45,974 nt of DNA from Reclinomonas americana ATCC 50394 (taxonomy: Eukaryota). The notes under the pieces are model-generated. The model saw only the letters and a list, made by a program, of their open reading frames with translations, made no database searches and was not told the origin of the DNA. How positions within the stretch are numbered: the stretch's first letter is position 1; each line of letters begins with the position of its first letter. This document shows positions 1 through 42,951 of this stretch, one piece after another. Both the position numbers and the translations under genes were made by a program. The stretch lies in assembly GCA_048213135.1 (NCBI GenBank), contig PS015653.1:1-45974 (forward strand), written 5' to 3'.

Positions 1-1442
1 AGAGGGACTGACCACACTGTCGAGATCGTGTGTGCTGTCGTGCGTCCCGTTGGTCGGTGGTCGCGGGTGTGATCTTGATGCTGTGTTATGTGCGTGTGTG
101 AGTGTCTCTGTCACAGTGTGTGTGTGAGAGAGAGAGCGCGCGCGCGTAACAGCTGCGATGAGGATGCTTGCCAGCAGTGGGCGCGGGAATGGGACTGGCC
201 ATTGACGCACTGCCGAGGCCATCCAGTGAGCCCGTGTCTGTGTGAGCACTCATATGTGTGAGAGAACAGAGGAGAAGAGAGAAGAGGAAGAGAGACACAC
301 AGACCACTCATGCGCGCGTGCAACAACAAGAGACAATCTGGTGAGTCACACACAGAGAGATCATCGAGACAGCGGAGAGAGACGGAGATGCGCATGCTCA
401 GAGTCGCCTGGTATGGCGTCTACGGTGAGCACACTTGCTTATGTACTCTCATCGACACCGACACTGACACTCTCTCCCTCAGTGTTGCTGCACTTTGTGT
501 TCTTCCTGTCGGTGTCGCTGCCGGCGCTCTTCTCACTGAGCACAGTGGTGTCTCTGGTGTGTCAGTGTGTGTGAGAGAGAGAGAGTGAGTGTGTGTGGCT
601 CAACTCTGCGCACTGACTCGTTTTGTGTAGAGCAAAGTGGCGACTGCGGGCATGATCTTTGTCATGGCGTCGCTGTTCTTTGAGTTGGTCTCTGGTGAGC
701 GCACGCACACACACACACACACACGTGCGCGTCTTGAGTGTGTGTTGGTGACATCTGTGTGTGTGACACAGGCAACTTGTGTGTGATTGAGGCGTTTCAA
801 GATCCGCGGTGTCGGCCAGAGAGAGAGCGCGAGTTTCGATCGTTGCTCTTTGCTTGCGCGTGTCTGTGTGTCGCGCACGTGTTGAACACAGTGTGTCGAT
901 AGTGTGATCGACTCTGCGTCGTTGGTCGATGACGAGGAGGCGCAGCGTGAGGACTCGAGCATTGCGGGCACGGATGGTGCTCCCACGATTCGCTTTTGTG
1001 TGTGTGTGTGCGTTGGCTGCAACGGTGTGTGTTGAACGGTATGTTTTGTATGCGTGTGCAGCCACGGCTGTGTATGGTGGTCGGCCTACTAGACGCGAGG
1101 TGAATGGTGCGAGCTCGAATGACGATGAGTGGAGAAAACGGAGATGGATCGACGAGGAGAGAACGTGGCCAAAGATCGTGGCTGCCGGCTGCTTTGGCGT
1201 GTCGTTTGTGTTCAAGGCACGTCTGCTCTCTGTGTCTGCCATCGCATGTTCATTCGTGATTGTGACAACTTGGAACGCCGCACGAGCAGATTGTGGCGTC
1301 GATTCTGCTGTGGATCACCTGGACGCTCCTGTCGGATCACATTGGGTGGGCCGGCGACGTCATTGTCACATCGTACGCTGTCGGCGTACCCATATCCGCC
1401 GGCATGGTCATCTGCTTCTGGTGTCTCCAGAAGAAGGTATAG
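1..1442 (+). CDS. 3' part of a multi-exon, multi-pass membrane protein of unknown family; 5' end probably outside the window
   Basis: Frame-consistent exons give hydrophobic segments (RVAWYGVYVLLHFVFFLSVSLPALF; KVATAGMIFVMASLFFELV; IVASILLWITWTLL...VGVPISAGMVICFWCLQKKV*). Stop TAG at 1440-1442. Confidence 0.6.
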
Positions 1443-1494
1443 CCGGTAAACGGGAAGCAGTAGTATTGTTGTTGTTGTTGTTGCGGGTGCACCG

Positions 1495-3407
1495 TCACAT
1501 CATCGCCATTCGAGTGCCGAGCGCGTCCAGCATGTCGCTGAACCTCTCTTCGCCATACTTTTCAATGAGGAACGCACGCTGCGGCAACACACACACGCAC
1601 GCTGTTGAGGAGAAGACGGAGGGGAGCTTCTACATCGATGAGCAACGCACCTCGGCCACCAGTGCCTGCTGCTCGCGAGCCAGCGCCAAGGCCATGGCTT
1701 CTCGTCGCGTCATGTCCGCCTCGTGGCGCGTGTGCGTGTAGCGGAACACACCGTCCAGATCGACAACCTCCAATACGTCCATCCAGTCGTCGAGTTCGTC
1801 GGCCCGCTCAAACGCCAACACAATGTCTGTGTCACGCGAATCGGCTGATATCTGAGGCAGTCAAGGCAGGGGTGAGCGACGATTTCCTTTCTTCTCTCTC
1901 GCTGCAGTGAGCGGGCGCACACACCCTCAAGCACGTGCCAATGACACGCTTGGCGGGCGATGTGAGCGACGACAGGATGGTGGAAGAGAGCGAGGATGTA
2001 GACGACTCGTCATCGGCCTCGCCGCTAATGTAGCTTGCCAACGACGGGTGTATCGACTCCAACGGCAGCTGCTCCACAGAAAAGTCCTTGAGCAGCAGCG
2101 AATCAAGTGGATACTTGTCCTGTGAGTATCACAGTGTCAGTGCTGGTGGGCAGGTGGGGTAGAGCGACAGCAACGAAAATGACCTTGGAACTCTTGTGAA
2201 TGTACAACGACTGGCCCACGAGCGACACATGGCAGCGCTGCAAGCGCGCCTTGCCTTTGCGAGCCACAAACAGGACTCGCATGGCGGCGCCCTCCTTTTC
2301 CACGAAGCGTGTTTCCTGCAAGCGCAGTGAGAATGGCGGTGTGGAAAAGGAGGAAGTTCAACAAGCGGTACACACACACACCGATGGCTGAGTGAGCAGG
2401 CGGTGCGACGATGCAGCACCTATCGGCATGAATGAGTGAGTGTGACACTGAGGAATACGCGCAAGGAAGTAAAAGAACACAACTGGCGAGGGTGGTGAGT
2501 GGGGGCCACACCGAGGAGCCCGCAAACATCACCGTCGACTCGCGTGTCGAGGCTGACAGCTCTGCCAAACAACAGCAAGTGAGGCAGATGGACAGGGAGA
2601 AAAGAAGCCAGCGAGAGAAACACAGCCGAACCAGATGGCGACGACGCAGCGGCCGCCGAAGCAGCAGCCGCTGTACGTGGCACTGGGTCTATCCAGTCGA
2701 GAAGTCAGCAAACCACAGAGGATGGAGACAACAACGCGCAGACACAGCTCACCGGTCTCTCTCGTCTGCCCGTCGCCTTCATCCTCATCATCATCGTCTT
2801 CCCCGCCCGCAGCCAGCTCCTGCGGCAAGCCCAGACGCAGCAGAAAGCCCGACAAGTCATCCGCCACTGCCGCATACACACACAAATGAGCACACAGAGT
2901 CAACACACACACACAATGAAGACAACAACAAACACAACTGCTGCGCCGACTGCCAACAGAGCCGAGCGACTGACCGCCAGTCAGAGTCAGCGATCGCCGG
3001 GAGGAGGAGAAGGATGAGATGCGGAAAGTGGGCGCCACTGCTGCTGCTGGAGGAGGAGGCGAGGAGGCAGGTGCCTCGGATGATGGTGTTGCATCATCAT
3101 CATGCACAGCAGGCGACGAGAATGCAATAGTATGCCTCGATCCTGTGATGAATGATGAATAATGACTGAGTCTCTCTTTTCTGTCTCTGTGTGTGCTATA
3201 TGTGTGCTGTGTGCACCTGCGCCGGGTGGGAGAGGAGGGAGAGGGCGTCGTTGCAGTGGTGGTGGAGGAGGCGGGAGTGGACGATCGGCGAGTGACACTG
3301 TGTGTCGCTGCGTGTTGCTGCTGCTGCTGCCTGGCAGGGAGGGAAGGAGTGAGTGAGCAGAGGGAGACACAGAGAGAGAAGGGAACGCGCGCGCAAAAAC
3401 CTTCCAT
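1495..3407 (-). CDS. Multi-exon protein with a Pro-rich N-terminus and a PH-like domain
   Basis: ATG GAA G|GT...CAG|GC joins into RPLPPPPPPLQRRPLPPLPP. Later exons read EKEGAAMRVLF...RCHVSLVGQSLYIHKSSK and CLRISADSRDTDIVLAFERADELDDWMDVL (PH C-terminal helix with Trp). Stop TGA at 1495-1497. Confidence 0.6.
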
Positions 3408-3933: not shown

Positions 3934-3976
<43 letters not shown>

Positions 3977-5561
3977 GCTCATGAGTGTGTGTGTGACAGC
4001 GACTGACGATGAGACGCTGGGGTATCCGACCATGGGATCGTCGGGAGGCACTCCGCGAGCCATGTCGCCGTCGTTGGCGCAGCTGGCGGCGCGAGTGCGT
4101 GAGGTCGAGGGCCACATTGACTACAGCAAGGAGGCGCGCCAGCGAAAGACGCAGGAGCGCATGGTCGAGTCGTCGACGTATCAGGTGCGGAGAGAGAGAA
4201 AGGGCTTTCGTTGCTTGCTGTGTTGCATCTGACTTGTTGTACACGCGTGCGTGTGCAGGATATGTATCGGCAACTGAACGAGAAGATGGCGGTGTTGATG
4301 CAAGGGCAGGCGCGCGAGGCGCGGGCGCGAGAGCAGTCCGAGCTCAACTTGCAGCGCCGTCTCGAGGAGCGCATTGCGCAGCTCGATCGTGATCTCTCCA
4401 AGTTCAAGCAGACGAGCCTCACGCCGCAAGACGAGGCATTCTTGCGCAAGGAGGCCAATGCGGCAGTGACCAAGCAGATTGCTGGCAAGGTGTGTGTGTG
4501 TGTCTGGCGAGACGCTGCGCAAGAGAACTTGTTGCACTCACGCCTTGCCTTGTCTTGTCAGATGGAGGAGCGCTTCACACGACTCGAGGCCATTATCACC
4601 TCGGTGAATGAGACGTTCCAGAATTCGGAGCAGAACACGCTGAAGACGTACCACCAGTTTGACGACAAGCTGGTCGAGTTTGAGCGCCGTCTCGAGACCT
4701 TCCGCGAGCAGATTATCAAGAGTTGAGTGCCTCGCGCTGTTTCTCCTCTTGAGTTGTGTGGCTGACGTTGGTCCTTTGGTTGGCACAGAGACACTGGGTG
4801 CGGAGGAGAACACGCGTGCGGCACAGGCAGCTGTGGCGCGCATGGAGCGAGCCATTGAAGAAATGCGAATGAGCCAAGCACAAAGCATGGCTGAGCAGTG
4901 GGGTTGCGTTCTTTCTGACTGTGCCTTGTCGTCTCGCCCGCAAGTCACATCTCATCACCTTTTCCATCACGCAGAGCGTTTTACTCGTGAACTCGGACTT
5001 CTTCGCGGTCAGATGGAGCAAGACCACGAGGACAGAAGACGAGAAATGGCCGAGGCCCTGCAGAGAGTCGAGGACAGCGTGGCGTTCATTCGCGAGGGCC
5101 GCCAGGCGTTTGAAAAGATGGTCGACATGCGCATTCAGCAGCAGGTGTGCTGTGGTGCCTCAAGCACTGCCTTGCTCTCCTGTCTGCTCATCTCCCTTTG
5201 TGTAGATGCAACTGTTCCGTGAAGAAAGCAACCGTCAGGCGTCGCGTCTGCAGGATTACATTCGCGAAGGCCTCTCCAAGCTGGAGAACGCCCTGACCAA
5301 CACCAACACGCGCTTTGCCGACCTGGAAGATGTTGCGTTTGATCGACACTCTCGTTGAGCTGTTGTGATCCACAATTGACACTTGTCATGCAACGAACAC
5401 AGACGGTGCACACCGAGAGGCGAGCACGGCACCAGGCCGTCGAGGCACTGCGGCTGGAAATGCAGGCCGAGGCACAGGTTCGCGACGAGAACGAGGAACG
5501 TATCGTGGCGCTGGTACACAAGCACGTGTCGAGGCTCGACCAAGGCGACGGCGTTTTGTGA
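3670..5561 (+). CDS. Coiled-coil protein of unknown family, about 9 exons
   Basis: Starts MDPFDSFRNPNGSG. E/Q/R/K-rich heptad-like exons (LAARVREVEGH; QDMYRQLNEK; MEERFTRLEAII; HQAVEALRLEMQAE) join in frame through GT-AG introns. Stop TGA at 5559-5561. Confidence 0.7.
3934..3976. repeat. Intronic compound (GT)n(GA)n microsatellite, typical of many introns in the window
   Basis: gtgtgtgt...gagagaga starting at the donor GT. Confidence 0.9.
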
Positions 5562-5739: not shown

Positions 5740-8700
5740 TTACCTAAGCACCTCCCCTCCTGCACCGCTGTCGTCGCTACCGCTTCGGCTGCCAGTGACT
5801 CCTCCATCACTGTCGGCCACATGGCTGCTGGCTGCCGAGTTGGCGGCTGGTCTGAGCACTGATTCGTACTCGTGCAGCTGCTCCACAAACGCCTGCGTGT
5901 GCACCACAACTCCTCAGCAACAACCACGGAGGATTTCTTGTTAAAACATCGCACATACCGGCGGCAGCACCACTTGTGGTCTCTTTTGTGTCACTTGCTG
6001 AATGGCCACCGTCACATCGCACGCCTGCCGTCGCATCCAGTACGCAATGGCAAACGCAGCCGCTCGACTGCAGAGAGACAGTCAGAAATCACAGAGAGCG
6101 TGTGCCACAAAGAAGGCGGACACAGCGAACGACGCACGTGTCACCAGTGTCACAGTAGAGCAGCACCCGACCCTGCGCTGACCGATCACGAACTTGCTCT
6201 GCGCAAGCCAACATCAGTGAGTCGAGGCACCAGCAGCAGCAAGGTTGTGTGCCAACGCACCAATGACGGCCAATACGGCCTCCAGATGCGGCAGCAGTTC
6301 CGCTCGCGAATCGTTTGCCACCGGAAACTAACCAGCAAGATCAAGGTGTCATCTGATGAGTCGAGTCGCGACATGGACTCCCAACAGCACACACACACAC
6401 TGACCACGTGGTACTGCACACCCGCAATGGCCGGCTCGACGTGCACTTCGGCTGCCACCGACACGACATCCGTAATCATCAGCGTCTCCAGTGTCTCCGC
6501 GTGACGAGCATACACGTGGCCTGCACTCCACCATGGTGAGAGAGTGCAGAACGCATTCTTCAGACGTGCCACGACTCCGCAACTGCCAATGTACAAGTAC
6601 GGAGCAAGCTGCGTGACAGCCGCTGCCTGGCGCAGCCACTTGTCCACGTGACTGTGTGCATTTGGTGAGAGGGGGCCAAAAATCAGTGCACAACAGAGTG
6701 CCACCACCGACCTCTCCGCCTCCAGATGTTGTCGCTCAAACTCAGAAGACAAGACGTCGCGTAGTCGCGCACGAAGTGCATCTGGATCCGTCAGTTCCGT
6801 GGTCGCCAACTGCGACATTAGCGCTTCGACGCGCTCATTCAACGCCTCTGGCATCAACGATCTCTCCGGGCTCAGCACTGCTAGACAACACAATAAGTTG
6901 ATGTAGATGTGACATCACAAAAGAGAAGGTGGTGGTCCGCACCTGGCACAGTGGCCGTGGGGCTGCCGACAACAATGCGAGTCGGTGACATGAGTGGTCC
7001 CGAGGCCGCACCAATGTATGGCGACTGCCTGATGAAGCCTGCACCGTCAGCACCAGCCATCAACTCCACGCCGAGCTTTTCGGCTTCCTCTTGCAGCACA
7101 GACTCTGCAGCAATCGCTGGTGAGAGAGAGAGAGAGAGAATCATCGTGTGCATCGATAAAGACACGAACCGAGCAGCGGTAATCGCTGCAGCATGTTGGA
7201 TGTTGGTCGACTGTTCACACTGTGCGGCAGCAGGAAGCGAAGCATGCGCAGGTCGGAGACCAGCAGAGCACCGGATTCTGAAAGGAGAAGGCTTGTCAAG
7301 CATCTGCCCGCACCAAATGGCTCCGCAAACACAAGAGACGCACCAAAATCGGCGAGTCGATGCAAGACGGCCACCAGCGCTGAATCAACATCCGCGTCTC
7401 GCAGTTGCATGGCGACGGCTAATGCCTCACCCAGGCGTTCCTCAACGAGGTGTGACACTATCCGTTCTGTGAACCCGGTCCGAGAGCAGAGTTGGCATCA
7501 CGGGAGAGACAGACTGCGTGCGCAACACAACTCACCTTCAATGTTCAGATGCGACAAGAGATGCTGCACGGCCAGCAGCGCGCCACGAACGACTCGCGGA
7601 TTGGTCGAACGGAGAAAGGTGAACCACCCGTTCACCGGCGCACTGGCAACATACGAACTTGCTTGCGCTGCAGCACGGAGTGAGTGCACAGAAGCCATGC
7701 ATTGACGAGGCGTGACTTTCAAACGCAACGATTGAATGCCAGCTTGCTCAACACCTGCACCGCCAGCAGGTGATCGTCGCGATCGCGCAGGAAGGCTACC
7801 GCACTCGCCGCCAACCATGCGACCTATCAATGTGTGCGCAGGTGAGTAACCCAGATACGCCATGTGCACGAGAGAGCACACGCAAACCTCGTAATCGAAG
7901 CACGACATGAGTACTCGCAAGACCTCGCGCGGAGCCAGCACCTGGTTCTGATCCAGTTGCTCAAGGCACAGCGGGTCTGCAACATATGTGAGAGAGAGAG
8001 CGACCAAGAGGAGGGAAGGGCTAGTGACATGACAGCTCACCCCGCTGAACGTTCTCGAAGAACCACCTGGCCTCGTAGCGCTCGAGGAACCACTCGTCGC
8101 GTGGTGTGGCCGCTGTCGAGTCGCCAGCTGCACAGCGAGAAAGTCAGACTGGAGCGACGGAAAACCGACCACAACGACAGTCACACGAACGTCCGATGGT
8201 GTCGAGAAACGCGCTGATGCTCTCAAACGTTGGCCGTGCGGTCACATCCGCCAGCAGACACCGCTTGATCAAGTCCTGCGAAAATCGGAAACAAGAAATC
8301 AGCTATTGCATTCAGCACCAATGCACTCGCTAGCGCGATCGCAACGTTCAGAGCCGGTGGCCACCACGGCGGCAGCGCAGGTTCCTGATTGTGCATGAGT
8401 GGCTCACGAATGTGTGCAAACACCCAATCCTCTGCACGACCGCCATGAGAACCAACACACACAAAAACAGAAGCAGTAGCTGGGTTCCCACCTTTCTGGA
8501 AGATATCAAAATCGGGGTGATCACGGATAAACATGATCTCGAACAGCGTGATGCCGAAGCCTGTACACACCAATGGCTGTCAGACGACACGGACTCACAC
8601 AAGAAACGGCGGCGCATGTGGATGCAACTGAACACGTCGGCTGCGCAGCAAAACAGATGAGTAAGTGCGACTCGTCACATCCTGTTTAGATCACGAAGTG

Positions 8701-11700
8701 CGACCTCACCTGGCTTTCCATAACTCGGCGATAGGGCCACCTGGAGAAGAGAACTTGAGCAACAGAAAACACGGAAGACCTGTTCACGGTCGGCAAATTA
8801 CCTCGGGTGCCTGCATCGAATCACATGCATGAGTCGCCGCGCAACACATGCAACAACAGCAGCAGCACAGCAGCCAGCACGTACCATGTAAATGATGGTT
8901 CCCACCGCACCCGACGCCTGTCCTGTCTCCAGGACTCGCGACAGGCCAAAGTCTGAGATCTTGACGGTGTAGTTTTGATCAACCTGCGAGTGCAGTGTGA
9001 GTACGTCGGCGTTGTGCAACACGGACAGTGCCCGGCACTTCGAACCAGCAGATTGAGCGGCTTCAGGTCCAAGTGAATAATGTCTCGCATGTGCAAATAG
9101 TTCATGCCGGCGGCGACGCCGACCAGCATGCGCCAAAGTCGCGCGTCTGTGACCACTACACGCTCCCGCATTGGTTTGATGATGTTGTACAAGTTGCCTG
9201 CAGCAGCAGTTTAGCACCACGCACACACACACACACAACCGCAGCACACACATGCGTGAGCAAACCTCGTTCCATGTACTCCATGGCAATGACAGGCGAC
9301 GTTCCACCGTCCTTGCTGCCGACATTGGTCGAGCCGACACCAATGAACAGAACAATGTTGGGATGCCGAAGCGCACTACCGAAAACACGGGGCGGGATTA
9401 GCACTTGCAGCGGCAAGTCGACATGGGAGGTATGAATACGTACACCATCATTCCGACTTCGGTGCGAATGTCGGCCAGCAGCTTCGGCGTCACAGCTCTG
9501 TTCTTGAGTCGTTTCACCGCGACATCGGCACCCCACAGCCTTGCTCTAGTAGTTGCATACCCACGCGTGTCAGATCCGACGACCATGCCGTGAGAGCGCG
9601 TGGCATCACTACGCAACTTGTAAACCTCGCCGTACATGCCCTCTGCCACCTTCTCCACAAACTCGATTGCATCCGACGAAATCTGCCACGACACATCGGG
9701 TCCTTGTGGGGCGTCGGGTAGTACCGCCAACCGGGCCGACTATACGCACGCACAAGTGAGTGACTGGATGTCGCAGAGGTGCACAATACATGCGTGCACG
9801 AAACTTGTCGAATGAGTGAGTTCATGCGATCGTTGAACACTTGCTTCATCTTCCTCAGGTCGCCAGTGAACGAGGGAACCACCCGCTCCATGGCCTCAAT
9901 CATGCCCTTCATGAACTGCTCCACGTTGCCGTTGCACGAGTTGAACCAGTGTTGCACGGCACCATCGCGTGCCGACTTGGCCCACTCGTGCTGCGCAGCG
10001 TCACCGATCGCGTTAGAGAGACTGGACATCCCATCCATCAGCAAGAGAGGGGACACTAACCCTTTGCGTCGCAATGGCTTGGATCCACAAAGTGACTTCC
10101 TCCTGACTCTGCACCGCAACGAGGATCGTATTGCTGCACGAGTACGACAACTTCGATGAGCACGACATAAAGCGACTCACATCTGTGCGTTTCGAGTCAC
10201 CTGGTAGTCGACGTCTCAATGCGAAACGCATATGGCCGTACCGCACGCTCCTCGCTGCTTACGTCCTCCACCGACACAATGTCGCCCAGAAACACGGAAC
10301 GCACGTGTGACCATGAGCGCTGCATATACGGAGGCCGAGTGAGCGATGCACAACACGCGACGGCGACGTCGACATCAAACCTTGGTGAAGAAGCACAGAT
10401 CGGTATTCCGCAGTACCAGCAGACGTTCCTCCCACACATCTGCATCGACCGCCAACATCGCCTCGAGCAGCGTGGAACACTCCCACACCGTCGACTCCTT
10501 CAGCGCCGCACGTCTCGACAGAACCTCCTGTGCGGTGAACATGCGGTGAATGGCTGCAGCCAAAGGGCGATGGAAACAAAGACGCGGTCACGCAACGTTG
10601 GCCAGCATGGGACCCATCGACTGCACGCGAGGAAAGTGGCGAGCCATTCGCGACTTCCGCGTCGGCTCATCGGCCTGACGCAGAGATGATGGCGTGATGG
10701 GCGAGCTTGGCGACGAGCGGCCATTGTGTGTCGGCAACAACAGAGGTCGCGTCGGCGACAGACGGAGGGGAGCAAAAGATACGACAGCATCAGCGGAGGG
10801 CGATCGTCGCAGGTCATCACGCTCCGACGGCGGCAGATCGAGTGACGGCCGATGTACCGTGAGCTGAGCTGGATCGACCACTGCCGTCTCCACCACCAAA
10901 GGCGCTGATGGCAAACCAGCAGCAGCAGTGGCATTAGCGGTAGTAGCACTGGCAGTAGTGGTGGTAGTGGTGGTGGTGGTCGTTGTTGTTGTCGTAGTTG
11001 CCGGGGCGACTACAGGTACCACCGATACCACCGGAGAAGCCAAGGCGGGTGAAACGGGACCTGCAGCAGCGGTACTGACTGGATTGTTGGATGTGGATCC
11101 GTTACTGGAGAGTGTGCTACTCGGTGTCACGAGAACGCCACCAACGGCCTGCTCGGAGCTGCCAATCACCATCTGCGAAGAATATGGTGAGGGACGCGAG
11201 TGACGCGGTTAAAGAGAGTCTGCGCCCCCCCCGCACCTCACGCTCCAGCAACTGCTCGATGCCGAAACGCAAATACGTCAGCGCCGTGACCCACTGGTCG
11301 CGCACTGTTGCACTGGTGCACATAATGTCGATGGTGCGATCCTGCAGCATCACACTGAAGCCGGTGGCTGCGGCGCGGATCGACCCATTAGCGATTATGC
11401 AGCGAAATTACAAGGCGTGCCAACGCGACGCACCAAGCAACTCGCTCCACCCGGCATCCAGTGCCGCCTTGAGCACCGGCGTCTTCACGCCGCTCCAAAT
11501 GTCGAGAACCGACGACAATGGCACCGAGCGTCCCAAGCCACGCGCCTTGCTTCCCCACTGCGGTACGTACATACACCCATATCAGTATCGCACACGCACA
11601 CGAGCAGACGAGTGCTGTTGCACCCCCGCTTCAGCGCACCAGAAGCGATTTGCGATCCTCGGAGATGGCAAACCATCGCTTGTGGTGGCTGCCTGGCCGA

Positions 11701-26148: not shown

Positions 26149-27559
26149 ATGAGCGCTAACCAGTACCCCACTCTCCTCTCCCCCTTCCAAGTCGGCGACC
26201 TGCAGCTCTCGCACCGCGTGGTCCTCGCACCGATGACTCGCAGCCGCACTCGCGGAGCCCCGGATTTCGTTGCGCGCTCGTTCTTTTTGCGTCACTCGCC
26301 GCGACGACTGCTGCAACTGACTCCCTCTGAACAGCTGCTGCAAGACAATGTGGCGGTGCACTTTGCACAGCGCGCCACTCCCGGTGGCCTGCTGGTAAGC
26401 GTTTTGCCCCAGTCACTCTTATTGTCTGTCTCTCTCTCTCTCAAACATGCAATGGCAGATCACTGACGCCACCAACGTCTCGCGCATGAGCACTCCCTTC
26501 AACAACGCCGTGTGCATCTGGAGCGACGAGCAAGCGGAGAGCTGGCGCGCGGTGACCGAGGCCGTGCACGCCAAGGGCGGCTACATTTTCCTGCAGCTGT
26601 GGCACGCCGGCCGTGTTGGCCACTCGGACTACACGCCCGACCACCGCCCTCCGTTTGCGCCGTCGGTCATTGAGCCGGCGGACTCGGTGCAGGTGTACGA
26701 CTCCACCGACGGCCACGTGCTGACGAACAAGAAGGCGTCGGTGCCGCAGGAGATGACGGCGGAGGATATCGCCACCACCATTGCGGAGTTCGGGCAGGGG
26801 GCGGCGCGCGCGGCGCATGCGGGCTTTGATGGCGTGGAGATCCACGGCGCCAATGGCTACCTCATTCAGCAGTTCCTCAGCGACGGCACCAACAAGCGCA
26901 CCGATGCGTACGGTGGCTCGATTGAGAACCGCATGCGCTTCTTGCTCGAGGTGCTCGAGGAAGTCAGCAAGCACTTCCCCGCCAACCGCATCGGCATTCG
27001 CCAGTCGCCCGTCACGCAGTGTTGCGTCCTCCTCTGCTGCTGCTGCTGCTGCAGCAAGACGATGAAGAAATCTGCGTACTTACTGGCTTTCTCTCGCAGA
27101 CAACGACGTGATGCACACCGACATCGAAGCCACATACCACGCGGTCGCCAAGGCCCTGAACGGCAAGTTGGCCTACGTCCACCTGTGCGACTTCAACCCG
27201 GCGGTGGCCGAGTCAAACCTCGCGCTGTTCAGCGAGTTCAAGGGGCCGCTGATGATCAACGGCGGCGTGCCGCCTGAGCAGGCCGAGAGCCTCGTTGCGT
27301 CGGGCAAGGCGCACTTCGCGTCGTTCGGGCGCCTGTTTATCGCCAACCCGGACCTCGTCGAGCGCCTTCGCATCGGCGCGCCGCTCGCGAAGCACGACTA
27401 CCCGGTACGTGCATTTGTGCGTGTGCGAAGTGTCATGATGACGCTTGGAATGCTCACCTGTTCGTGCACTTGCAGACGTGGTACGTTGGAGGCGACAAGG
27501 GCTACATCGACTACCCCACGTACACACCGGGCGAGTCTTCTGCCGCCGCCGCCGAGTAA
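26149..27559 (+). CDS. Old Yellow Enzyme / NADH:flavin oxidoreductase (classical OYE), 5 exons
   Basis: HRVVLAPMTRSR, QRATPGGLLITDAT, FLQLWHAGR, GFDGVEIHGANGYLIQQFL, NKRTDAYGGSIENRMRF, FGRLFIANPDLVERL, GYIDYP. Confidence 0.95.
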
Positions 27560-27665: not shown

Positions 27666-28410
27666 CTACGTCTTCTTGTACGCCGTCAACAACTCGTCGA
27701 GTTGCGCCTCGTACTTGGGCTGCAGCAGGACCTTGATCTCACGCGCCGTTTGTGACACCGCACACGGGAAACACACAATCGTCTTGCACCCATCGCCGAC
27801 CGGATCCTCCTGCACGCGACAGAGTGAGTTCTCTATCTCTTTCTCGACTGCTCGTGTGTCGTACCTTGTACTTCCACGTGTCTCGTACTCGCTTGCGCGC
27901 CTGGTACTCGTAGTACATGCAGCTGCACGGACCCATGCCTTGCGCGCGATTGAAGTCAGCATGACACTGTGAGCACACCAAAAAAATACACAAACACACA
28001 CACACACCAATCAAGCAAAACGCCAGAGGCACCAGACACGGCTTGGTGCAGATGGACTGGCGACTCGACGTGTGCACTCCGGTGGATCTGAGAGACAAAA
28101 GTCAACACACAAAATGTGTAACACAGCATGCAAGTCCGCGCAACTGATTGTAGTTCACAGCCCATTGATTCCAGCAACAGCTCCGTGCTGATGCAGACAC
28201 AATGAGCAGCGACACTAACCCACACACGCACTGTGCGACACGATTCTCACCGAGCACACCACTGTCACTCAGACATCCCCAGCAGCTCGTCTTGTAATCC
28301 GTGCGCACTGGTGCCCCGCGGTCGCTGCCCATGGACGACGTCCGCACAGGACGCGTGGTAGACGCACTGCCACTGCTGGAGGCAGCCGGCGCCTTCTTCC
28401 CCGATGACAT
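27666..28410 (-). CDS. PLAC8 family Cys-rich protein
   Basis: YKTSCWGCLSD, SCCWNQW, ARKRVRDTWKYKEDPVGDGCKTIVCFPCAVSQTAREIK (D C...C.PCA..Q..RE signature). Confidence 0.8.
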
Positions 28411-28521: not shown

Positions 28522-31500
28522 ATGAGTGGACGTGAGAGCGGTGGCGGTGGCGGCGACGATGACCGTCGCACACATCAAGTGGCGCGCATGCCGACGTGGG
28601 CGGCTGGTATCGATGAGCCACCTGCCGTGGTGCCACCTGTCGCCACTGCCGCGGCAAGTGGTAGTGGTGCGACACATGGAGCTGCTGCTCGTGTGCGTGG
28701 CAGCCATGGTGGCGCAGAGTCTGACTCAGACTGCGATGATGATGATGATGAGGATGAGGATGAGGATGTGAGTGATTTGGATGGTGAAGCCAATGTTCTG
28801 CTGCGTTTGGCGCGCATTTCGCTGGAGGCGGTTGATCGGCAGCAGCAGCCGGAGGCTGGCGAGAAGCGGTGTTTTGTGCGGGCGCTGGTGCAGGAGGATC
28901 GAGGGGATTCGACAGTGACAACGGCGGTTCGGGTGGGACAACCGGCGGCACGTGGAGCAAGTGCGGCTGGCAAGGCAGAGGAGGTGCACCGCACGCGACT
29001 GCTGCGACAGATGCACGGTGCTTCGCTGGGCGGGCAGGGCGATGAGGTGTGTTGTGTTGACCAGTGACCACTTGTCTCTGTGTGACACGCAGTCACACGT
29101 GGTGTGTTTGCCAGGGCGAGGAGGCGGCATTCGTCGTGCGACCGTCGCGGCGGCCACGGTTGGTGCTGCAGCTAATCGACGAGGACACCGATGCCGTGAT
29201 GGCGCAGAGTTCAGCCACGCCGCTGTTGGCCTCCACCGACAGTGGAATGCTGTTGCCGCCGATCGGTTCGGGAGCGCCGGCACACCAAAATCTGACCGGT
29301 ATCACGCTGCAGCCAGTGGGGCCGTCCTCACGCTTCCGTGTCAGCATTGACGGTGTGGTGTCGCCCGTCGCCTTTGGCATGTCACCGGTCAAGCGTGGTC
29401 GACCGCCCACCACGGGCAACCGTCCACCGCCGGGCCAGCGATCGATGTTGAACACGCCATTACAGGTGTGTGTGTGTGTGTGACCCAACTCATCCACCTT
29501 CTCATGCCTTGTTTCTTCCTCCCCTCAGGGCCAGCATCCGGCCTGTCGCATTATCAAGATTCACGCCCACTGCGCGTCGCCGCTACCGATCAGCGCGGCC
29601 ATGGCCTCGGTGGCGTTCCAGGTGGTGGAACACGTCGTCGAAGTGGCAGAGTCGCGTGACGGCGACGGCGTGGTTCGTGTTCGTGCCGATGCCGAGGTGG
29701 AAGCGGTGGCGGTGGAGGGCCAGTGTGCGCGGTGGCGGAGAACGATTGAATTGAGTCTGCCTGAAGAGGTGCGAGGCGGCGACTGCACGCGCTGATACCA
29801 CAGTCTGTGTAACACTGCGTGGGGAATTCCTTGTGTGAGCAGGATCTGGCCAGTGGAGCCAGCGTGGGTCTGCGAGTACAGGTGCGCTTGCACGGCGCCG
29901 ACGGTCGTGTGAGCGATGGTCTGCGTTTCGTCATTCCGTTCCACTGCTTGACATCGTCGCACACGTTGCGTCCAGCGTGTCTGAGGGCAGCTGTTGTATT
30001 ACCTTTGTCTTCAACCACTGCCCGCGCACAGGCACAATCTGGAGGTCGTCAGTCGCGACGGTGTGCGACTGTATCTGACGCTGCAGGTGGAGCGCTTCCG
30101 TGAGGAGGACATTGTTTTGTTTGAGGAGCGACCGTCACTTCGCCGACTAGGGGTACGTGTGCGCGGCATGTCGTTGTGCCTCTCTTCCTCGTTCGTGTGT
30201 GGGTAACACTGTACTTGTGCAGGTGTCCATCATGATGCTCGACGGTGAACTGGCGGCCGCCGGTGTCGTGAGCGACTTTGTGCCGGTGGTATCGGTGATG
30301 CCTGACATGACCATCTTCAAGTCCAGCATCAGAAGAGTTTCGCGATGCCGTCTTCTTGTTGGTGGGTCTGCGCTGGCCTGACACTCTCTGTGCTTGCATG
30401 TGCGCAGGGTTCCTACTCGATCAACTTGCCAGTGTCGACGGTGCACTTGTCGGAGGCGAATCCGTTTGAGAGTCTTGTTTCGTACACCCATCCAGCCAGC
30501 CGTGTTCCTCGGTGTCACTGCTGCTGCTGCTGCTCACAACGCGGGGGTGATGCAGGGGTTTGTCGCAAGTCCATTCCTCTCCAAACCACAAGTGCTCTTT
30601 CCGGGAAGTGTTCGCTCGTCGATGGTGGAGTTCAACGAGCGCTGCGTATTCGTGCAAGATCAGGTGTGTGTAGCATGCAGGGAGCGAGTCCTTGTTTCAC
30701 GACGTGCTCACGTTCTGCACAGGCAACACTCGGTCCCAACACGCACGTGGTGGTGCAATTATTCGAGCGCACCTTTCCGCAACCGGTTTGACACTGTCTG
30801 TGCTTCTCTCTCTGCTCGTGTGTTTGTCGCTCATCGCATGCCATCGCGCAGCCGGACGAGGAAGGCGAGCACTCGTTGGGCGCCAAGCTGCGCGCTTTCG
30901 TGTCCATTCCGATATCAGAGATTGCGGCGCCGGAGAACATGACACCCGAGGTCAGCGCTCGCGCACTTCACCATGTACCTTGTGCAATCCTGACAGCACG
31001 TGTGGTGTGGTGCAGGGATGCCTCGAGTGTAGTGCACGTTGCAAGTTGCGAGTCGTCGGTGCTTCGGATTACCACATGGAGGAAAAGTGTGGGGTACGTG
31101 TTGTGTTGTTCATGCCGTCCACTCCACACTGTCGCCGTGGCGTGACTTGGAATGGATGCGATGCAGCTCCATGTGAAAACGGCACTGTGGGTTGGAGAAA
31201 AGTACCTGGTCAAACTGCGGCGTGAGTCCGCTGGCCTCGTCCGTCCCGTCTCCTCCGTGTTCTCCGATCCTGTCAAATCACCCTCGTCTCCCAACGTCGA
31301 CGACGGCCGGCTCTCGCGGCAAAGTAGCCTCGGGCGCAATAGGTTTGCCTGGTGGAGATGGGTGACAGCGGTGAAGGAGGCTGACTATTCCACGCACTCG
31401 CAGCTTTCTGAATCCACGAAGCTCACGAATGGCCGGTGGACGACCTCCCAGTGAACAATCACCGCGTGTCGCGGCCGACGGCAATATGGGTGGTGCGTAC

Positions 31501-33819
31501 GATGGCGATGCAGCGGTCACTTTGCATGCGTGGTTCAACTCTTATATTGCGTGCGTGTCCATTAGCATCACCGGGAAAACGCCCGACCACCTCCGACTTG
31601 CCTCCACGCTCCGGCCGGCCGCGTGCAGGCATGTGTGGCAGAGAATGCGCAGCCGCAGTTGTTTTCTCCTGGGTACTCACACCCCTGCGATTGCTCTTGT
31701 CGTGCCACCAGACGGAGACAATCCCGTTCCCATTATGCGATCGCCGGCTGAGCACGACAGATTAGTGCCGCACGGCAGCGGAGCCAACACGAATCGTTCA
31801 TTGTCGTCGTCGCCACCTGCGGAGCGACCCAACGTGCGCAGCCGCTCCTCTTCCGATTCGCCGGCGTACCAGAAGCCCCCGAGGTACATTTGTACTGATG
31901 CACCCAAGGAGCTTTCCGACAATCACTGACTGCATTGTTGCCGAGTAGCCGGGGTCGACCGGACATGCCGGCTCTGCCGCTGCCACAGGGTGGCACGGGA
32001 GGACTTGCACCACCGGGCATGGGCAAACCACCTACTGGTGCGCTGTCTCCCGGCAGTGCTCGATCACAGCACTCGAGTGGTGGTGGGCGGCCACCGCCGG
32101 CGACTGATCGGTGTGTATTCCACGCTACTGTCCGTATCGTCATTGCCAACGTACTCATTATCTCTTTCATATCACAGCGGCACTCCTGGAGAGGCGCTAG
32201 CATCGTCGCAGCGATCCTCGGGGACCAACAGCTCGGCAAGAAGCAGCAGTGGGGGCACGGAACCGTCGCCCTACGAGAGCATCATCACTGGCAAGGACGC
32301 GGTGATTAGCTCGTTGTTGCACCAGTTGGACGATCAGTCGGAGCATGTTGCACAGGCATGTGGTGATGCCACTCTACATGTCGCCATGTGTGTCCACTCA
32401 CGGGTCTTGCATTCGTCAGGTGACGGCCGAGAACGCCGCACTGCGTGCAGAAGTGCAGCGGCTGGAGGCTCAGGTGGACCAGTTCGACACGTCGCATCTC
32501 GATACGGCGCGCCCGCTGGAGCACTTGTCGCGAGAGCAGGTGATGGAGGAGCATCGGACTGCGCTGTCGGAGATTCGGCGACTGCAGTCACTGGCGGACC
32601 GGTACGAACTCAAGATCCAAGGCCTGCAGAACGAGATCATTCGCGGCAACGAGGCCTCGAAACGCCTCATCGAGTTGGAGCAGGCGCACATGATCCAGAG
32701 CACGATTCTGCAGAAACTGCAGAGCAAGAATGCTCGTCTCGAAAAGTACCGTCAGACGGCGCAGAAGCAGGAGGAGGTGATTGAGCGACTGGAAAAGGTG
32801 TTGGAGGTCACTGTGAGGCGATGTTGCGTTTGGTGGGGGGAGGGGCGTGCGCATCGACTGCGTCGATGTCACTCACTCGTGATGGGTGGGGTGTTCGACA
32901 GATCAAGGCGGCTCCACCACTCCCACCTCCAGTCCGTCGAAGGGTGGGAGCGCAGCCGACGAGCCGGGCGACGTGGCCGAGCTGCGCCGAGAGAAGGCGC
33001 AGTTGATGAAGGAGAAGGCGGCGCTGCTGGCCGAGCAGGCCAAGTGGGGAAGCGAGAAGTCGCAGCTCACCATGGAGAACGCTCGTCTGCAGCGACTGTC
33101 GAAGCAAGGACCTGGAGCCGAAGGAGCCAAGTGCGTACACCCCCCCCCCCCCCTTCCCCCCGCACTCTGTGATTGCTTGACGTGATATCTCACGATTGCC
33201 GCGGAGCAGCGGAGAACCGCCGTCTGCAGATGCCATGCAAGAGCTGACCAAGTTGCGCGAGGAGAAGCAGACGCTGACCGCAGAAAAGTTCGCCATGGCG
33301 ATGCGAGCCGAAAAGGCCGAGTCCAAAGTGCGTGCCATGGAGGAACAGGTGCGTCCGCGTGCTGGCTGCGTCCTGCGTGCACCTGTCTCTGATGCGCCTC
33401 CTGTGCAGATGATGGAGAACGCCCGCAAGTTTTCGAAAGAAATGTCGGCACTACGCATCAAGATGGCATCGCAGCAAAAGGGTGCGCCCAACGGTGCAGG
33501 CGGTGCTGGTGCCTCGGCCATGCTCACGTACCCACCGGGTCCGAATGCTGGAGCCGCCGCCTCCGGTGTGACGCTGAGTGTATCTCCACCTCCCAGCATC
33601 GGAGGAACGTCGAGCGTCGGCTCACGCTCGCCACAGCCGCCAGGTGGTGAGTACGCATATTTCAACACCCCTCTGCTCTCTTCTCTTGCTCCTTCTTGTT
33701 TAAAACTGGCCTCCTCGCATGCAGCACCGGCTCCACTCGACAGACCACGAGTGTCGGTGGCCGGCATCAAGCCACCGCCGCCATCGTTCAGACCACCGGG
33801 CGCCGCCAAGCCCCCATAG
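28522..33819 (+). CDS. CCDC33: CCDC33-like protein (C2-like domains + C-terminal coiled coil)
   Basis: Beta-rich C2-like exons. Coiled coil LQNEIIRGNE...LEKYRQTAQKQEEVIERLEKVLE and AEKAESKVRAMEEQMMENARKFSKE match recalled CCDC33 blocks (LQNELIRKND...QEKVIEKMERVLE; ESQLEDSARRWGRE). Confidence 0.75.
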
Positions 33820-33947: not shown

Positions 33948-35426
33948 ATGCCAGTGTTCACCACCGAGTTCTCTGGCTACTCGGTGTGTGCCTCTGTTGC
34001 ACCGTCTGCTCACACAACGCACACGCTCTCTCATACACACGCTCATCACCAGGTCGAGTTTTCGCCCTTTGAGGAGACGCGTCTGGCCGTGTCGACCGCG
34101 CAGCACTTTGGCATTGTGGGCAACGGACGGCAGTATGTGCTCGACGTGAACACCGACGAGGGAGTGATTGAGACAGTGCACACGTTTGATTCGAGTTGCG
34201 TTGTGTGGTGACGAGAGATGCATGCTTGAAGTGTGTGTGACCCTCTCTCTCTCTTTCTCTCTGTCAGACGATGGCCTGTACGACTGTGCGTGGAGCGAGG
34301 AGAACGAGAACCACCTGGTCAGTGTCAGTGGCGACGGAAGTGTCAAGGTGAGACCGTTGCTTTCACTCCCTCCGGCACATCGGAGGAGGCGCATTGACTG
34401 CGTGTTGTGCACAGATCTGGGACTTGGAAGCTCTGGAGAACCCACTCAAGAGCTACGCAGAGCACCAGAACGAGGCGTATTCAGTGGACTGGAACCTCGT
34501 CGGTTGCGTGCTTGGGTATGCTTGATCGTTCCTTGCCACACGTCTCACCGTTTTGCAGGCAAGGACACGTTTGTGACGGGTTCGTGGGATGAGACTGTGC
34601 GAGTGTGGTCGCTGGAGCAGGATAAGAGCTTGCGAGCGTACGAGGAGCACACGTACTGCGTGTACTCGACGATTTGGTCGCCAAGCGACGCCAATGTGTT
34701 TGCGTCGGCCTCGGGCGATTGCTCGGTCAAGATCTGGGACGTGAATGGTTTGGTTGTTGTGCGGCGATGCGCAGGTGGCGACACACACACGATCACCTGA
34801 CTTTTGTTGCGCATGGGTACGCAGAGTTGCACTCGGTGCAGACCCTGAAGGCGCACGACTACGAGATTCTCACGTGCGACTGGAACAAGTACAATGACAA
34901 CATTCTCGTGACCGGCTCCGTCGACAAAACGATTAGGATATGGGTGCGTGGTGCTCGTTTTCTGTGGGGTTGCTGCGTCACCTCACCACATGCCTCGCAG
35001 GACCTACGCGCACCCGAGCAAGAATTGTCGACGCTGCGTGGCCACACGTATGCGGTGCGTCGCATCAAGTGCTCACCACACGAGGAGAACATTCTCGCTT
35101 CGTGCTCCTAGTTGCGCCGCGGATGCAGCTCGCTCTCACAAGCATGCATGCCTGTGTGTACTCACGCGCTGTTGTCACAGCGACATGACGATGATTGTGT
35201 GGGACACGGAGGCGCGTGACCCCATCTTGCACAAGCACGAACATCACACCGAGTTCGTGGTCGGTCTGGACTGGAACCTCTACGTGGAGGGTCAGGTGCG
35301 GGCGTGCTTATTTTCTTCTATTGGCATCTGTGATGTCGCTCAATGCAGCTGCAGGTGGCCACGTGTGGCTGGGACGAAAAGGTGTGCGTGTGGGAACTCG
35401 GAGAAGATCCGCTTGCCAGGTCGTGA
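33948..35426 (+). CDS. PEX7: Peroxisomal targeting signal 2 receptor (WD40), 9 exons
   Basis: GYSVEFSPF...LAVSTAQHFGIVGNG, NDGLYDCAWSE, SGDGSVKIWD, AHDYEILTCDWNKY, GHTYAVRRIKCSPH, SCSYDMT, HHTEFVVGLDWN. Confidence 0.95.
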
Positions 35427-35561: not shown

Positions 35562-37459
35562 TCATGTGCGCGACGCGGGCGCATGAGTGCTCGCGCATTC
35601 TGCGCGGTAGTCGACCGGAATGTGTGGTCGCATTCGGCGATCAAAGGCCTCCAGCGGGCACAACAGCGACGAGGAGCCGGGAACCCACAGGTCGCGCCCG
35701 TCGTGTGCCACACGGAGCAGGGTGCTTGGCGCAGCCGGATTGGAGGTGTCTTCGTACACCTCGAACACCAAGGCCGAGCAGTACGGCGGCCACGGCGAGG
35801 CAGTGTACACGTGCATCACATCCTCCGGTCCAGGACCCGTCTCCACGCCGTCGACCAGATTGTTGTTGTTGTTGTTGTTATTGGCATGATTGTTCTTCTC
35901 GGCCGCGTTGGCCGGGACGTGCAGCTGCAGCGCAGCGAGGAGGGGCAAAATCGTGCTGTCGTGCGCGGTGAAGAGTAGCAATCGCGGTCTGTCACACGGA
36001 GACGTGTGAATAAAACGGCTTGCACACACAGGCAGATGCGAGTGACTCTCACCCCGATCGCGCGTGGTCCCGGGCAATGTGGATAATGTCGTCCACCAGG
36101 CTGCCAGAAGAGAGAAGGACGTCAGCGACAACTCAACTCACCACCTTTGCGCGTTTGTTTGACCACACGCAACCGTCCCATGGCCAGGCGGCTGAGCTCC
36201 GGATCGGCGTACCACGTCCACCAGCGCGCACGGTTGATCTCGGCCGCCAACTCCAAGTCGGCGGCAGTCAGTGGCGCCGGGAACGGCATTCCGTGCTCAT
36301 AGCGACACCGCAACAGCTCATGCACGCCGGTCCACGACACGTGCTCTCCCTCGGGAATGTCGTAGGCCTTGGCGATTTAAACAGCAAGTGAGACAGCGGC
36401 GATGCAAAGGGAGGGCTTGTAGGTACACGAACCTGCCGCACACGTTGCGACAATTCACGCTCGGCCTCGCCGACCTCACGCACGCGATCACGACGAGTGT
36501 GCGCGCGCAACAGACTGGCGAAACGAGCACACTTGCGATCCGAGTTGGACAGGAGCGTCTCGCGATCCCACAAGCGCACATTGATCGGCACCGTGGTGTG
36601 CAACTGCGCCGGCTCCGCCGTCTCCCGATCGATCCAGTTGGTGGCGGGAGGCGGATACAGCCCGAGCACCACATTCTGCGCCGTCTGCACCGTGCGCGAG
36701 AAACCAGTGCTCCTCACAAACAGCGCCGACCGATTCTCGTCTGCAACGACACCCCACCGCACGTCAGCACACGCACAGCGCAGGAAACGACGACGCCGCA
36801 AGCAACACTCGCCAGTGAGACTCGCCGGCAGCAGTCCGTAGTACTCGACGTACAGCTCCCGCAGTGCGTGACCCACGCCACGCGCCTGCGCCGCTCCGCG
36901 TGTGGTCAGCTCTCCCAGCGGATGCCGTCGGCTAAAGTTCACCGCGTAGCTCTCGTTCGGGTTCTCGTCTCTGCGCGCGCACGTGGATCGACGTGAGCGG
37001 GGAAGACGTGTGAGGCAATCATCCATGATGGGGAAAACCACGCAGCTGCACCGGCGGGCAGTTGTCGTCCCAGGCCAGCCGGTCATCGGCCGACGGAAGC
37101 GATCGCAGCCAGTACGCTCGCTCCTCCTCTGTCACGCGATAGGCGCGACCCAGCGACTCACTGACAGGCGCACGATCACCATGCCTGCACCGCAGATGCA
37201 TCCTTCTGTCAACAACACAGCTTTCTCGCGACAAAGCACAGCACACAGACCGCATAATGACAATCACACGACGGAGGTGCACGTTGGGCGGCAGTGGCAA
37301 GCGACGCGGAACGTGCTGCTCGGCCACCGACGCACTCGGCGTCGTCTCCGCAAAGAGCGTGTATCGACTGTGCGCTCGCCGCTGCGACAGGAAGAGCCAC
37401 AGCGCCGCACCTGCAGTGCTCACACAGAGCCCAGAGCGGGCGGCCTGCGCGAGAGACAT
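35562..37459 (-). CDS. Histidine acid phosphatase (branch 2, ACP6-like)
   Basis: Spliced RHGDRAP, GELTTRG, FVRSTGFSRTVQTAQ, LFTAHDSTI, WPPYCSALVFE. The N-terminus is hydrophobic/basic and resembles a targeting peptide. Confidence 0.9.
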
Positions 37460-37533
37460 GCGAGGAACAAACTTAAAGGATGACGGTCCCGCTCTTGATT
37501 GACTTGTTCCCTTCACGCGCGCGCACACACACC

Positions 37534-38794
37534 ATGTCGATGCTGTGGTTTGTCACGGGCTTTCTGTGCGGCGTGCTGACCATGTTGGGCGCGTTGATGG
37601 CGCTCTTCTGTCGCTTTGGGCCACCGGCGCGGCGCACGGCCGAACGCATGATGCGTCGCCGACAACAGTTACAAGAGGCCGCTGCTGCAGCAGCGGCAGC
37701 AGCTGAGGACTCTAGCAGTGGATCGTCAGTGTCGCACATTGCTGGTGGTGGCAGTGGTGTGGCGGCTTCGGCGGTGGCTGGACGACACGTGCATCATCCG
37801 ACTCGACATGCTGTTGCGCGCTGGAGGGGGGAATGCCACGCGTCCTTCTTCGTTTTCTGACTTGCGCGTGCGTGCACAGGTTCCGGTGCAGAAGCAGCCG
37901 GAGGACTGCGACTGGTTGAATGTGATGCTCTTCAAGATCTACAATGAGGTGCTGCATGAGGTGCGGCCGCAGATTGAGTCGCATGTGCGCGATCGTCTCG
38001 ATGGACTCCAGTTGCAGGATGCGATCGTTGCGTGCATGCTCCGCCCGCTGTGTGTGTCTGTTCTCACTCGTCTGGCGGGTCGACAGGCGCCACTGGAGCT
38101 GCGACACTTCTCACTCGGCCATGCGTTGCCGGTGTTCTCCAACTTGGAGGTGTCGAATGCGGCTGACGATAGTCGCTTGGTGCGTTTTGCAGTCGTGTGT
38201 TGTCGAGCACATGGTGCTAACACGGTGTGTGCTGCTGGTGCAGTCGATTCAAGTGGATGTGGAGTACAAAGGCGACGCCACCATGAACTTTGCCACGGAG
38301 CTGTCGTGGTTTTCGATGAGTCTGCCCGTTGACATTACTGTGTCGGCTGTGATCCTGCGTGCACGGGTGCGGTATTGTGCGTGCGTGTGCGAGGCGTACA
38401 GGCTTGTACTCAATCAATCCCTCCGCAGTTGTGCATCGACGTGCGGCGAGAACCGCACAGCCATCACATGGTCATCGATGTGTCGATGCTGCGAGAGCCC
38501 GAGTTGGACTACAAGTTTGAGAGTATCGTCGGGCATCCGGCACGCATGCGCAACAACGAAGCCGTGGAGCAAATGGTGAAGGATCAGGTGCTCGAGTCGA
38601 TCCACCGCCTCGTGCGACCCAACAAGATCACCATCAAGTTCGCCAACCCACTCGTCAAGGTGCAGCAACTACAACAACAGCAACAGCAGCAGCAGCAGCA
38701 GCAGCATCTCGCCCAGGCGCCGTCGCAGGCGATGTCGGGACCGTCACACGCAGCAGCAGCGCACCATCACCAGCATCCCCACTCACCACAATAA
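37534..38794 (+). CDS. SMP/TULIP-domain lipid-transfer protein with N-terminal TM (Mmm1/PDZD8-like)
   Basis: N-terminal TM (LWFVTGFLCGVLTMLGALMALF); PEDCDWLNVML, LRHFSLGHALP, VDVEYKG, EPELDYKFESIVG, LVRPNKITIKF; poly-Q tail. Confidence 0.8.
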
Positions 38795-42946: not shown

Positions 42947-42951
42947 ATAAG

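Follow-up and report, generated by a model that had tools for sequence, protein, structure and literature searches.

In a stretch of 45,974 nucleotides (nt) from Reclinomonas americana ATCC 50394 (contig PS015653.1 of assembly GCA_048213135.1, positions 1 to 45,974 of the forward strand; hereafter the window), we find that N|GTTGCG(T/C) is a real donor signal, and a frequent one, at which short GT-AG introns of the ordinary kind begin. Few rules of splicing are as conserved as the pairing of U1 small nuclear RNA (snRNA) with the start of the intron, which is anchored by a G at the last exon position (-1) and a G at intron position +5. In the donors described here, the cut is predicted to fall before the G of GTTGCG, and the conserved GCGU would then lie one base farther downstream of it than at ordinary G|GU(G/A)CGU sites. 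These sites may be read by a single U1 whose pairing is offset by one base and whose 5' end probably differs from the standard one; we give this reading a probability of about 40%. Hereafter, the GTTGCG-like class (n = 30) comprises 26 GTTGCG donors and 4 donors with GTTGCA, GTTGCT or GTTGAG, all other introns are called ordinary, and a minus sign before a position denotes the reverse strand.

Introns were modelled in two ways. A donor-agnostic gene finder, which weighs codon usage, the length of the intron and the acceptor base and treats all GT dinucleotides as equal donors, returned 57 introns in 24 genes. A second model has a donor term that admits the ordinary core at +3, or at +4 behind a T, and makes no use of the -1 base. 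The curated set of 102 introns combines this donor-term model with region runs and manual fixes (two kinase-domain microexons, three in-frame introns and two further introns of a short-chain dehydrogenase, or SDR, gene), and some of the class counts below were computed on its 100-intron stage (30 GTTGCG-like and 70 ordinary), before the SDR additions. Two other finders were set aside, namely a codon-only one, whose noisy output included numerous antisense genes and long spurious introns, and one retraining its own intron signals, which inflated to 224 introns.

The preliminary description of this DNA had listed 23 GTTGCG sites as donors, and all 23 do read GTTGCG on the strand given for them. 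Both strands of the window hold 61 copies of the hexamer, against 49.0 +/- 7.3 in dinucleotide shuffles (61 was reached by 4 of 100); the raw number is therefore barely raised, and the signal is the way in which the copies are used. Of the 6316 GT sites on both strands, these 61 supply 10 of the 57 donors of the agnostic finder, which also uses one GTTGCT and one GTTGCA (binomial p = 2e-10 for the excess of GTTGCG). When each of the 78 hexamers with at least 30 copies was knocked out of the same finder, the best-path score dropped by 26.3 without GTTGCG, by 11.0 without the next-costliest hexamer, GTGAGA, and by a median of 0. GTTGCG thus makes up 18% of the donors in the agnostic set (21% including variants) and 25-29% in the curated set, 29% being an upper estimate because the donor term favoured the motif, and this agrees with the earlier claim of a major, systematic donor class. 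It is also the commonest donor hexamer of the curated set, in which GTGCGT, next to it, counts 12, or 13 after the SDR additions. Extended to 7-mers on either strand, GTTGCGT is used as a donor in 18 of 23 copies, GGTGCGT in 8 of 20, GGTACGT in 4 of 11 and GGTGAGT in 4 of 18. The gene models recovered 22 of the 23 listed sites as donors and, of the four variants reported with them, those at -15230, 4722 and -8628; the fourth, GTTGCT at 842..847 (+), was not recovered, and no + strand gene is predicted in 1-3950. Beyond that list, we found GTTGCG donors at -22219, +32823 and -36173, all in the agnostic set, a weak one at +17255, and a GTTGCT donor at -2174.

Alignments with homologues fix seven of the 23 listed junctions: 27021, 26269 (by length only), 34195, 34503, 35111, 24774 and 24263. 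In the Old Yellow Enzyme (OYE) gene (+ strand), the intron 27021..27099 (AGT|GTTGCGT), also present in the agnostic model, lies where the Pfam profile and tblastn with three homologues stop at 27019/27016 and restart in a different frame at 27096-27102; given an acceptor at 27099, the required frame comes from the GT at 27021 only, and the GT at 27019 fails. Removal of the 66-nt intron 26269..26334 (TTC|GTTGCGC), in frame and stop-free, yields the spacing of two conserved blocks that is expected from OYE relatives, which is evidence of length only. In PEX7 (+ strand), three homologues align across all junctions: residues 59 and 60 are contiguous over 34195..34267 (CGA|GTTGCGT), and splicing of 34503..34558 (TCG|GTTGCGT) gives DWNLV[G]KDTFVTGSWD, matching DWNLVGKDTIVTGSWD in a homologue, both introns being in the agnostic set as well. 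At 35111..35180 (CTA|GTTGCGC), the unspliced TA|G is a stop codon that a cut one base later would keep, and splicing produces SCS[Y]DMT opposite SASYDMS of a homologue. The spliced SDR protein (- strand) aligns with 51 of 51 full-length homologues; across 24193..24263 (GAT|GTTGCGC), HPGWVD|TDMG lies over their HPGWV(R/K/D)TDMG with no gap, and 24702..24774 (CCA|GTTGCGC, also in the agnostic model), in a variable loop, is spanned by all 51 alignments, 15 of them gap-free within 8 residues. At both 35111 and 24263 the residues rule out a cut one base downstream. The motifs cited for 9617, 8628, 8345, 6583 and 13554 are putative motifs of kinases, phosphatases and nucleotidyltransferases: the spliced products would read GEVY[K]LWGADVAVK at 9617 and DVF[S]FGI at 8628 (kinase), LYIG[S]H at 6583 (phosphatase family) and GS[F]NPVHRGH at 13554 (nucleotidyltransferase). 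A homologue search with the exon 13709-13942 (longer proteins) matched nothing, and Pfam on 14 single exons of a large kinase gene confirmed the junction at 9045 alone (profile positions 89-130, then 132-164).

The two donor classes differ sharply in the last base of the exon. As had been reported, two of the listed 23 follow a G. Among curated introns, 3 of 30 GTTGCG-like donors and 53 of 72 others have a G at -1 (Fisher p = 2e-9), and in the agnostic set 2 of 12 and 34 of 45 (p = 3e-4). Even the strongest ordinary donors, GT(A/G)CGT, have it in 12 of 20 cases (p = 3e-4 against the 3 of 30). Intron phases are alike in both classes (p = 0.29), and the contrast persists within them (phase 0: 0/12 against 34/41). 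As a control, G precedes 4 of 35 GTTGCG copies that are not donors and 21% of all GT sites. Since unused copies rarely follow G either, we describe the class as one without a preference for G at -1, rather than one that picks other bases; of the proposal that GTTGCG is used mainly where the exon lacks a terminal G, the rarity of G stands and the selectivity is better put as an absence of selection for G. An A occupies -1 in 12 of 30 GTTGCG-like donors, against 19% before any GT (p = 0.008), and ordinary donors have an A at -2 in 33 of 72.

Within the intron, GTTGCG-like donors are close to invariant: T at +3 and G at +4 in 30 of 30, C at +5 in 29 of 30, in keeping with the reported loss of the +5 G, and G at +6 in 27 of 30. 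Position +7 is T in 18 and C in 6 of the 26 GTTGCG donors; of the 35 unused copies, 5 have a T there. Among 70 ordinary donors, +5 is G in 62, +6 is T in 40 and +4 is C in 34. The T at +3 is irreplaceable, as GTAGCG, GTCGCG and GTGGCG are used as donors in none of 141 copies in either intron set. In length, acceptor, composition and branch motif, the class looks like the ordinary one. The median length is 68 nt in both, base composition is alike, all 30 GTTGCG-like introns start with GT, and their acceptors are CAG in 28, TAG in one and AAG in one (CAG in 60 of 70 ordinary introns). A branch-like YTNAY motif, mostly CTCAC or CTGAC, is present in 27 of 30 at a median of 20 nt from the 3' end, and in 57 of 70 ordinary introns at a median of 19. 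The features of U2-type GT-AG introns that could be assessed (termini, branch-like motif, restoration of frame or protein) are thus all found in GTTGCG-like introns. U12-type introns, with the donor consensus /(A/G)TATCCTT, are a similar case in that they form a second donor class with a nearly invariant 7-mer, but this donor motif occurs in 0 of 30, and branch motif, length and acceptor are as in ordinary introns.

A few further donors have the form G|GTTTG (GTTTGG, GTTTGC, GTTTGA, GTTTGT; at 34748 and 18081 on the + strand and 9265, 10380 and 41551 on the - strand), and the one at 34748 is fixed by PEX7 homologues. As these keep the G at -1 and the G at +5, T at +3 alone is insufficient to define the GTTGCG class. 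At -9804 we also noted CAA|GTTTCGT, which resembles GTTCGT with one additional T and in which -1 is not G.

To ask how such a donor could be read, duplexes with U1 were modelled in ViennaRNA, which ignores pseudouridine and U1 proteins; the variant U1 ends are hypothetical, and these duplexes yield predictions, not findings. In the shifted pairing that we favour, U1 would pair one position out of step at GUUGCGU, so that G+1 would face the U1 base normally paired with the exon's last G, U+2 would be mismatched, and UGCGU (+3 to +7) would pair in place of the usual +2 to +6. U6 and U5 would later set cleavage at GU, with one extra U tolerated between GU and the GU paired by U6 (+6, +7). Whatever U1 does, we infer that pairing of U6 with GU at +6/+7 needs this extra U to be fitted beside the catalytic GU. 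We propose that, with the central pair lost, only the strongest core (GCGU) would work, which could be why the class is nearly invariant and ordinary donors are variable. Shifted geometry fits better than a bulge because there is no preference for G at -1, a hint of A there, and a strict T at +3. The U1 5' end is probably non-standard, with a G at position 5 that would pair to C. Among 256 hypothetical ends (positions 3-6 varied), G at position 5 was best for the ordinary donors and the standard end came third, which is consistent with their frequent C at +4 (34/70). With this G in the U1 end, an idealised A|GUUGCGU adopts precisely the shifted form, with one 1x1 mismatch, at -7.3 kcal/mol, and G|GUUGCGU takes up the bulge register at -10.2 kcal/mol.

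Several results weigh against this shifted pairing. With the standard U1 end, the GTTGCG class has a mean energy of -1.05 kcal/mol, against -2.86 for 1500 random GT sites and -6.09 for ordinary donors, and G+1 lies opposite U1 nucleotide 9 in only 4 of the 30 minimum-energy duplexes; even when position 5 is G, the mean advantage of the real sites over decoys is only 0.4 standard deviations. Shifted analogues of other ordinary cores are nearly unused (GTTGTG 0/42, GTTACG 0/5, GTTGAG 1/22), and GTTGCGT is the most donor-specific 7-mer that we saw, which is odd for a site relying on a mismatched helix. The excess of A at -1 is not significant when measured against GTTGCG copies that are not donors (8/35). 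In addition, 13 of the 26 GTTGCG donors come solely from the model whose donor term rewarded GTT plus the core. The one-base shift of register suggested in the preliminary description therefore has a mixed outcome: the indifference to G and the A at -1, the obligatory T at +3, and a T at +7 that mirrors the ordinary T at +6 all fit it, but the duplex with a standard U1 is no better than at a random GT. In these models, neither the shifted nor the bulged register explains recognition by a standard U1, and since random GT sites pair better with the standard end than the class does, it is a serious possibility that U1 is altered or that a second U1 exists.

The extreme form of that possibility would be a major spliceosome with two dialects, in which a second U1 snRNA, or a U1 with a re-tuned 5' end fully complementary to GUUGCGU, would read the class through an uninterrupted helix offset by one position, rather than a mismatched one, regardless of the last exon base. 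We consider it unlikely, if still weighty. It would account for the poor fit of the standard end and for a 7-mer that is nearly invariant and so specific to donors (18 of 23 copies); the ends modelled as best for the class (..CGCAAC..) differ from the best for ordinary donors (..ACGUAC..), no single one of the 256 serving both well, and variant U1 5' ends are known in other protists, such as a diplonemid (PMC12621601). But in the best modelled variant positions 8 and 9 are still C, which would make G the favoured base at -1, unlike the data, and nearest-neighbour energies disregard U1 proteins and pseudouridines. A bulged U would require no such change of register: U1, and later U6, would keep the usual register at G+1 and U+2, one of the two Us would loop out, and GCGU would pair as +3 to +6. 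This is suggested by the motif itself, which is the commonest ordinary hexamer, GTGCGT, plus one T, and by read-through open reading frame (ORF) fragments of two relatives, which imply (from translations only) G|GTGC.. or G|GTGA.. where the window has G|GTTGCG, the exon ending at the same point. A site with G at -1 is modelled in the bulge form at minimum energy, U6 pairing at the catalytic stage would need such a bulge anyway, and bulged +2/+3 sites are proven in human (PMC4856993). A bulge, however, retains the G:C pair at -1, so that G should stay favoured there, and it is seen in 3 of 30 donors and, in phase 0, in 0 of 12; a bulge should also accept any base, yet none but T occurs at that position (0/141). 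Taking these together, we regard a bulged U as rather improbable.

The remaining probability is shared by recognition without U1 pairing, by artefact and by mobile introns. That the class is an artefact of gene modelling, with frames restored by chance or true cuts at nearby non-GT positions, seems very improbable to us. The 13 sites owed to the motif-rewarding model would suit it, as would several introns that are in frame and stop-free (4903, 26269, 38027), but homologues settle seven of the junctions, GTTGCG stands out in the donor-blind finder as well as in the knock-out test, and at 35111 moving the cut one base downstream would leave the stop codon of the unspliced reading in place. Introners, mobile introns that have spread recently, each carrying its own GTTGCG end, could explain why one exact 6-7-mer is repeated at many intron starts; yet all-against-all blastn of 100 introns gave three low-complexity pairs, none of them between GTTGCG introns, and composition and length equal those of other introns. 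As GTTGCG introns share no sequence, a mobile-intron family is excluded on this evidence and the same spliceosome is favoured, and we find introners barely credible.

Pairing of U1 in alternative registers is known from human. In the shifted register, proven for rare GUU sites, all pairs move by one and G+1 replaces the exon G (Roca & Krainer 2009, via Tan et al. 2016, PMC4856993); in the bulge register, a U at +2/+3 is left unpaired (Roca et al. 2012, via the same source). Together, all curated noncanonical registers make up 2.1% of human 5' splice sites, according to that paper (PMC4856993). Human shifted-register sites share with the window's class the GUU start, the G+1 that stands in for the exon G, the lack of a G at +5 and a cleavage at GU, here predicted, but they are rare and their ..AAGU core fits the standard U1, whereas the window's class reaches 18-29% and its GCGU core fits poorly. 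Human bulge +2/+3 sites are alike in the extra U behind GU and in a downstream consensus displaced by one base; there, however, the benefit of a G at -1 is kept, whereas in the window G is found in 3 of 30 and T alone is accepted at +3. The diplonemid S. specki (PMC12621601) likewise combines unusual donors with more than one U1 5' end, of which the window shares the unusual donors; the difference is that its variant with a run of C goes with G-rich or noncanonical donors, whereas the window's introns stay GT-AG. A tunicate paper only suggests that non-GT sites might use a shifted register (PMC13326754). Our literature search on GTTGCG/GUUGCG donors and shifted-register splice sites, with the host's own literature outside its scope, found no such class described in any organism, and a search on jakobid genomes found nothing on splice sites.

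A leading donor hexamer that breaks both anchors would make a natural system for asking how U1, U6 and U5 agree on the site of the cut. The same lineage could show how much slippage of register the catalytic core tolerates, and whether U1 variants partition the introns; were the two-dialect reading true, a quarter of all introns would be committed to a second U1 or to a re-tuned one. Gene prediction trained on donors of the GTRNGT type will mis-model at least a fifth of the introns of this genome. Out-of-register pairing is otherwise known only as a 1-2% oddity of human sites (PMC4856993).

Besides the junctions fixed by homologues, the agnostic model places GTTGCG-like introns at 2120..2174 (-, TTC|GTTGCT variant), 5332..5402 (+, GAT|GTTGCGT), 14117..14183 (+, CAA|GTTGCGT), 15166..15230 (-, CAA|GTTGCAC variant) and 16742..16811 (+, CGA|GTTGCGC), and at three positions absent from the earlier list: 22159..22219 (-, ATT|GTTGCGT), 32823..32901 (+, GAT|GTTGCGT) and 36101..36173 (-, ACG|GTTGCGT), the last in the histidine-phosphatase gene. 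From the donor-term model come, all on the + strand, 4722..4788 (AGA|GTTGAGT variant, that is GTGAGT plus one T), whose unspliced frame ends after 1 codon, 13554..13616 (GTT|GTTGCGT), 13642..13708 (ATT|GTTGCGT, behind a 25-nt exon) and 16507..16574 (CCA|GTTGCGT), both of which give a spliced ORF, and 29965..30031 (CAC|GTTGCGT). The 72-nt intron 4903..4974 (GGG|GTTGCGT, +), found by this model only, is weaker, as is the 60-nt 38027..38086 (ATC|GTTGCGT, +), found only by a region run of the donor-term model; both are in frame and stop-free. Region runs also supply 17728..17804 (CGA|GTTGCGC, +), in a small-GTPase gene with a Ras family match downstream, and, with low confidence and from a region run only, a possible intron at 17255..17322 (CAT|GTTGCGT, +) in the 5' part of the GTPase gene. 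A 57-nt intron at 28088..28144 (TCA|GTTGCGC, -) is in no model but is plausible; by eye, it contains an in-frame stop and joins two Cys-rich pieces.

Four of the proposed introns are stop-free and a multiple of three in length (4903-4974, 26269-26334, 34944-35000 and 38027-38086), and their retention would add 19-24 residues. PEX7 homologues back 34944-35000 and block spacing backs 26269-26334, with the model as the sole source for the other two.

A very large kinase gene on the - strand has at least 27 exons over about 5941-10596 and beyond, with PH-like, TKL-type kinase and phosphatase-like parts, and a chain of 26 introns maintains a single ORF across it. Region runs place five GTTGCG introns here: 6521..6583 (GCA|GTTGCGG, at the phosphatase-like end) and 8276..8345 (AAC|GTTGCGA), both carried by the ORF chain, 7668..7729 (ATC|GTTGCGT) and 10528..10596 (AAC|GTTGCGT), whose unspliced frames end after 3 and 2 codons respectively, and 9540..9617 (CAA|GTTGCGT), with the acceptor AAG. 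The kinase domain also holds two microexons that automatic models skip, one of 9 nt (APE) at 8802-8810 and one of 12 nt (part of DVFS) at 8629-8640, and behind the latter the intron 8561..8628 (TCA|GTTGCAT variant) was found by eye.

The window as a whole is eukaryotic nuclear DNA of about 56-62% G+C, gene-dense and very rich in short introns, with about 100 of them in 46 kb. Runs of N mark assembly gaps at 23214-24166, which truncates the SDR gene at its 3' end, and at 42488-42507. Pfam on the long open frames found protein kinases, a PH domain, a Ras-family GTPase, SDR, OYE split over three frames, a WD40 protein (PEX7), a histidine phosphatase and a reverse transcriptase. An Rfam scan of the window gave no family at gathering score, and hence no snRNA gene, with one chance mir-297 match at E <= 1. 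The protein collection offered nothing close to the window's proteins; the best match for PEX7 is from the jakobid Andalucia godoyi, at 44%. The protein matches of an OYE exon are roughly 45-54% identical, and those that are named are all bacterial. For the whole OYE gene (26150-27559, +, 4 introns), the best named matches are bacterial alkene reductases, with no closer eukaryotic protein among the matches listed, and an old gene transfer is possible, or else thin sampling of the lineage.

Two environmental read-through ORF fragments (P0203 and P0204) have PEX7 exons 68-75% identical to those of the window, which indicates that closer relatives are present in public data, as short contigs only. 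One or two of the window's introns are absent from them, and their translations imply ordinary GTG.. donors at the position of the window's G|GTTGCG. A metagenome scan with a PEX7 exon returned 30 loci, the best of which (L004/L005 and L001) belong to other organisms and lack the GTTGCG donor class: L004/L005 are 64-67% identical over the main PEX7 segments, with 37-38% GC and tiny introns, and L001 is 60-65% identical over two PEX7 segments. In L001 (155-255), the intron behind DGLY opens with GTATCCTC and has CCCTCTAAC about 30 nt downstream of the donor and about 60 nt before the 3' end. The donor looks like that of a U12-type (minor spliceosome) intron, while a U12 branch site would be expected nearer to the 3' end than CCCTCTAAC is. 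Finally, at the end of the window (42800-45934, +), long intron-poor open frames with an RVT_1 domain at 43510-44142 probably belong to a retroelement.

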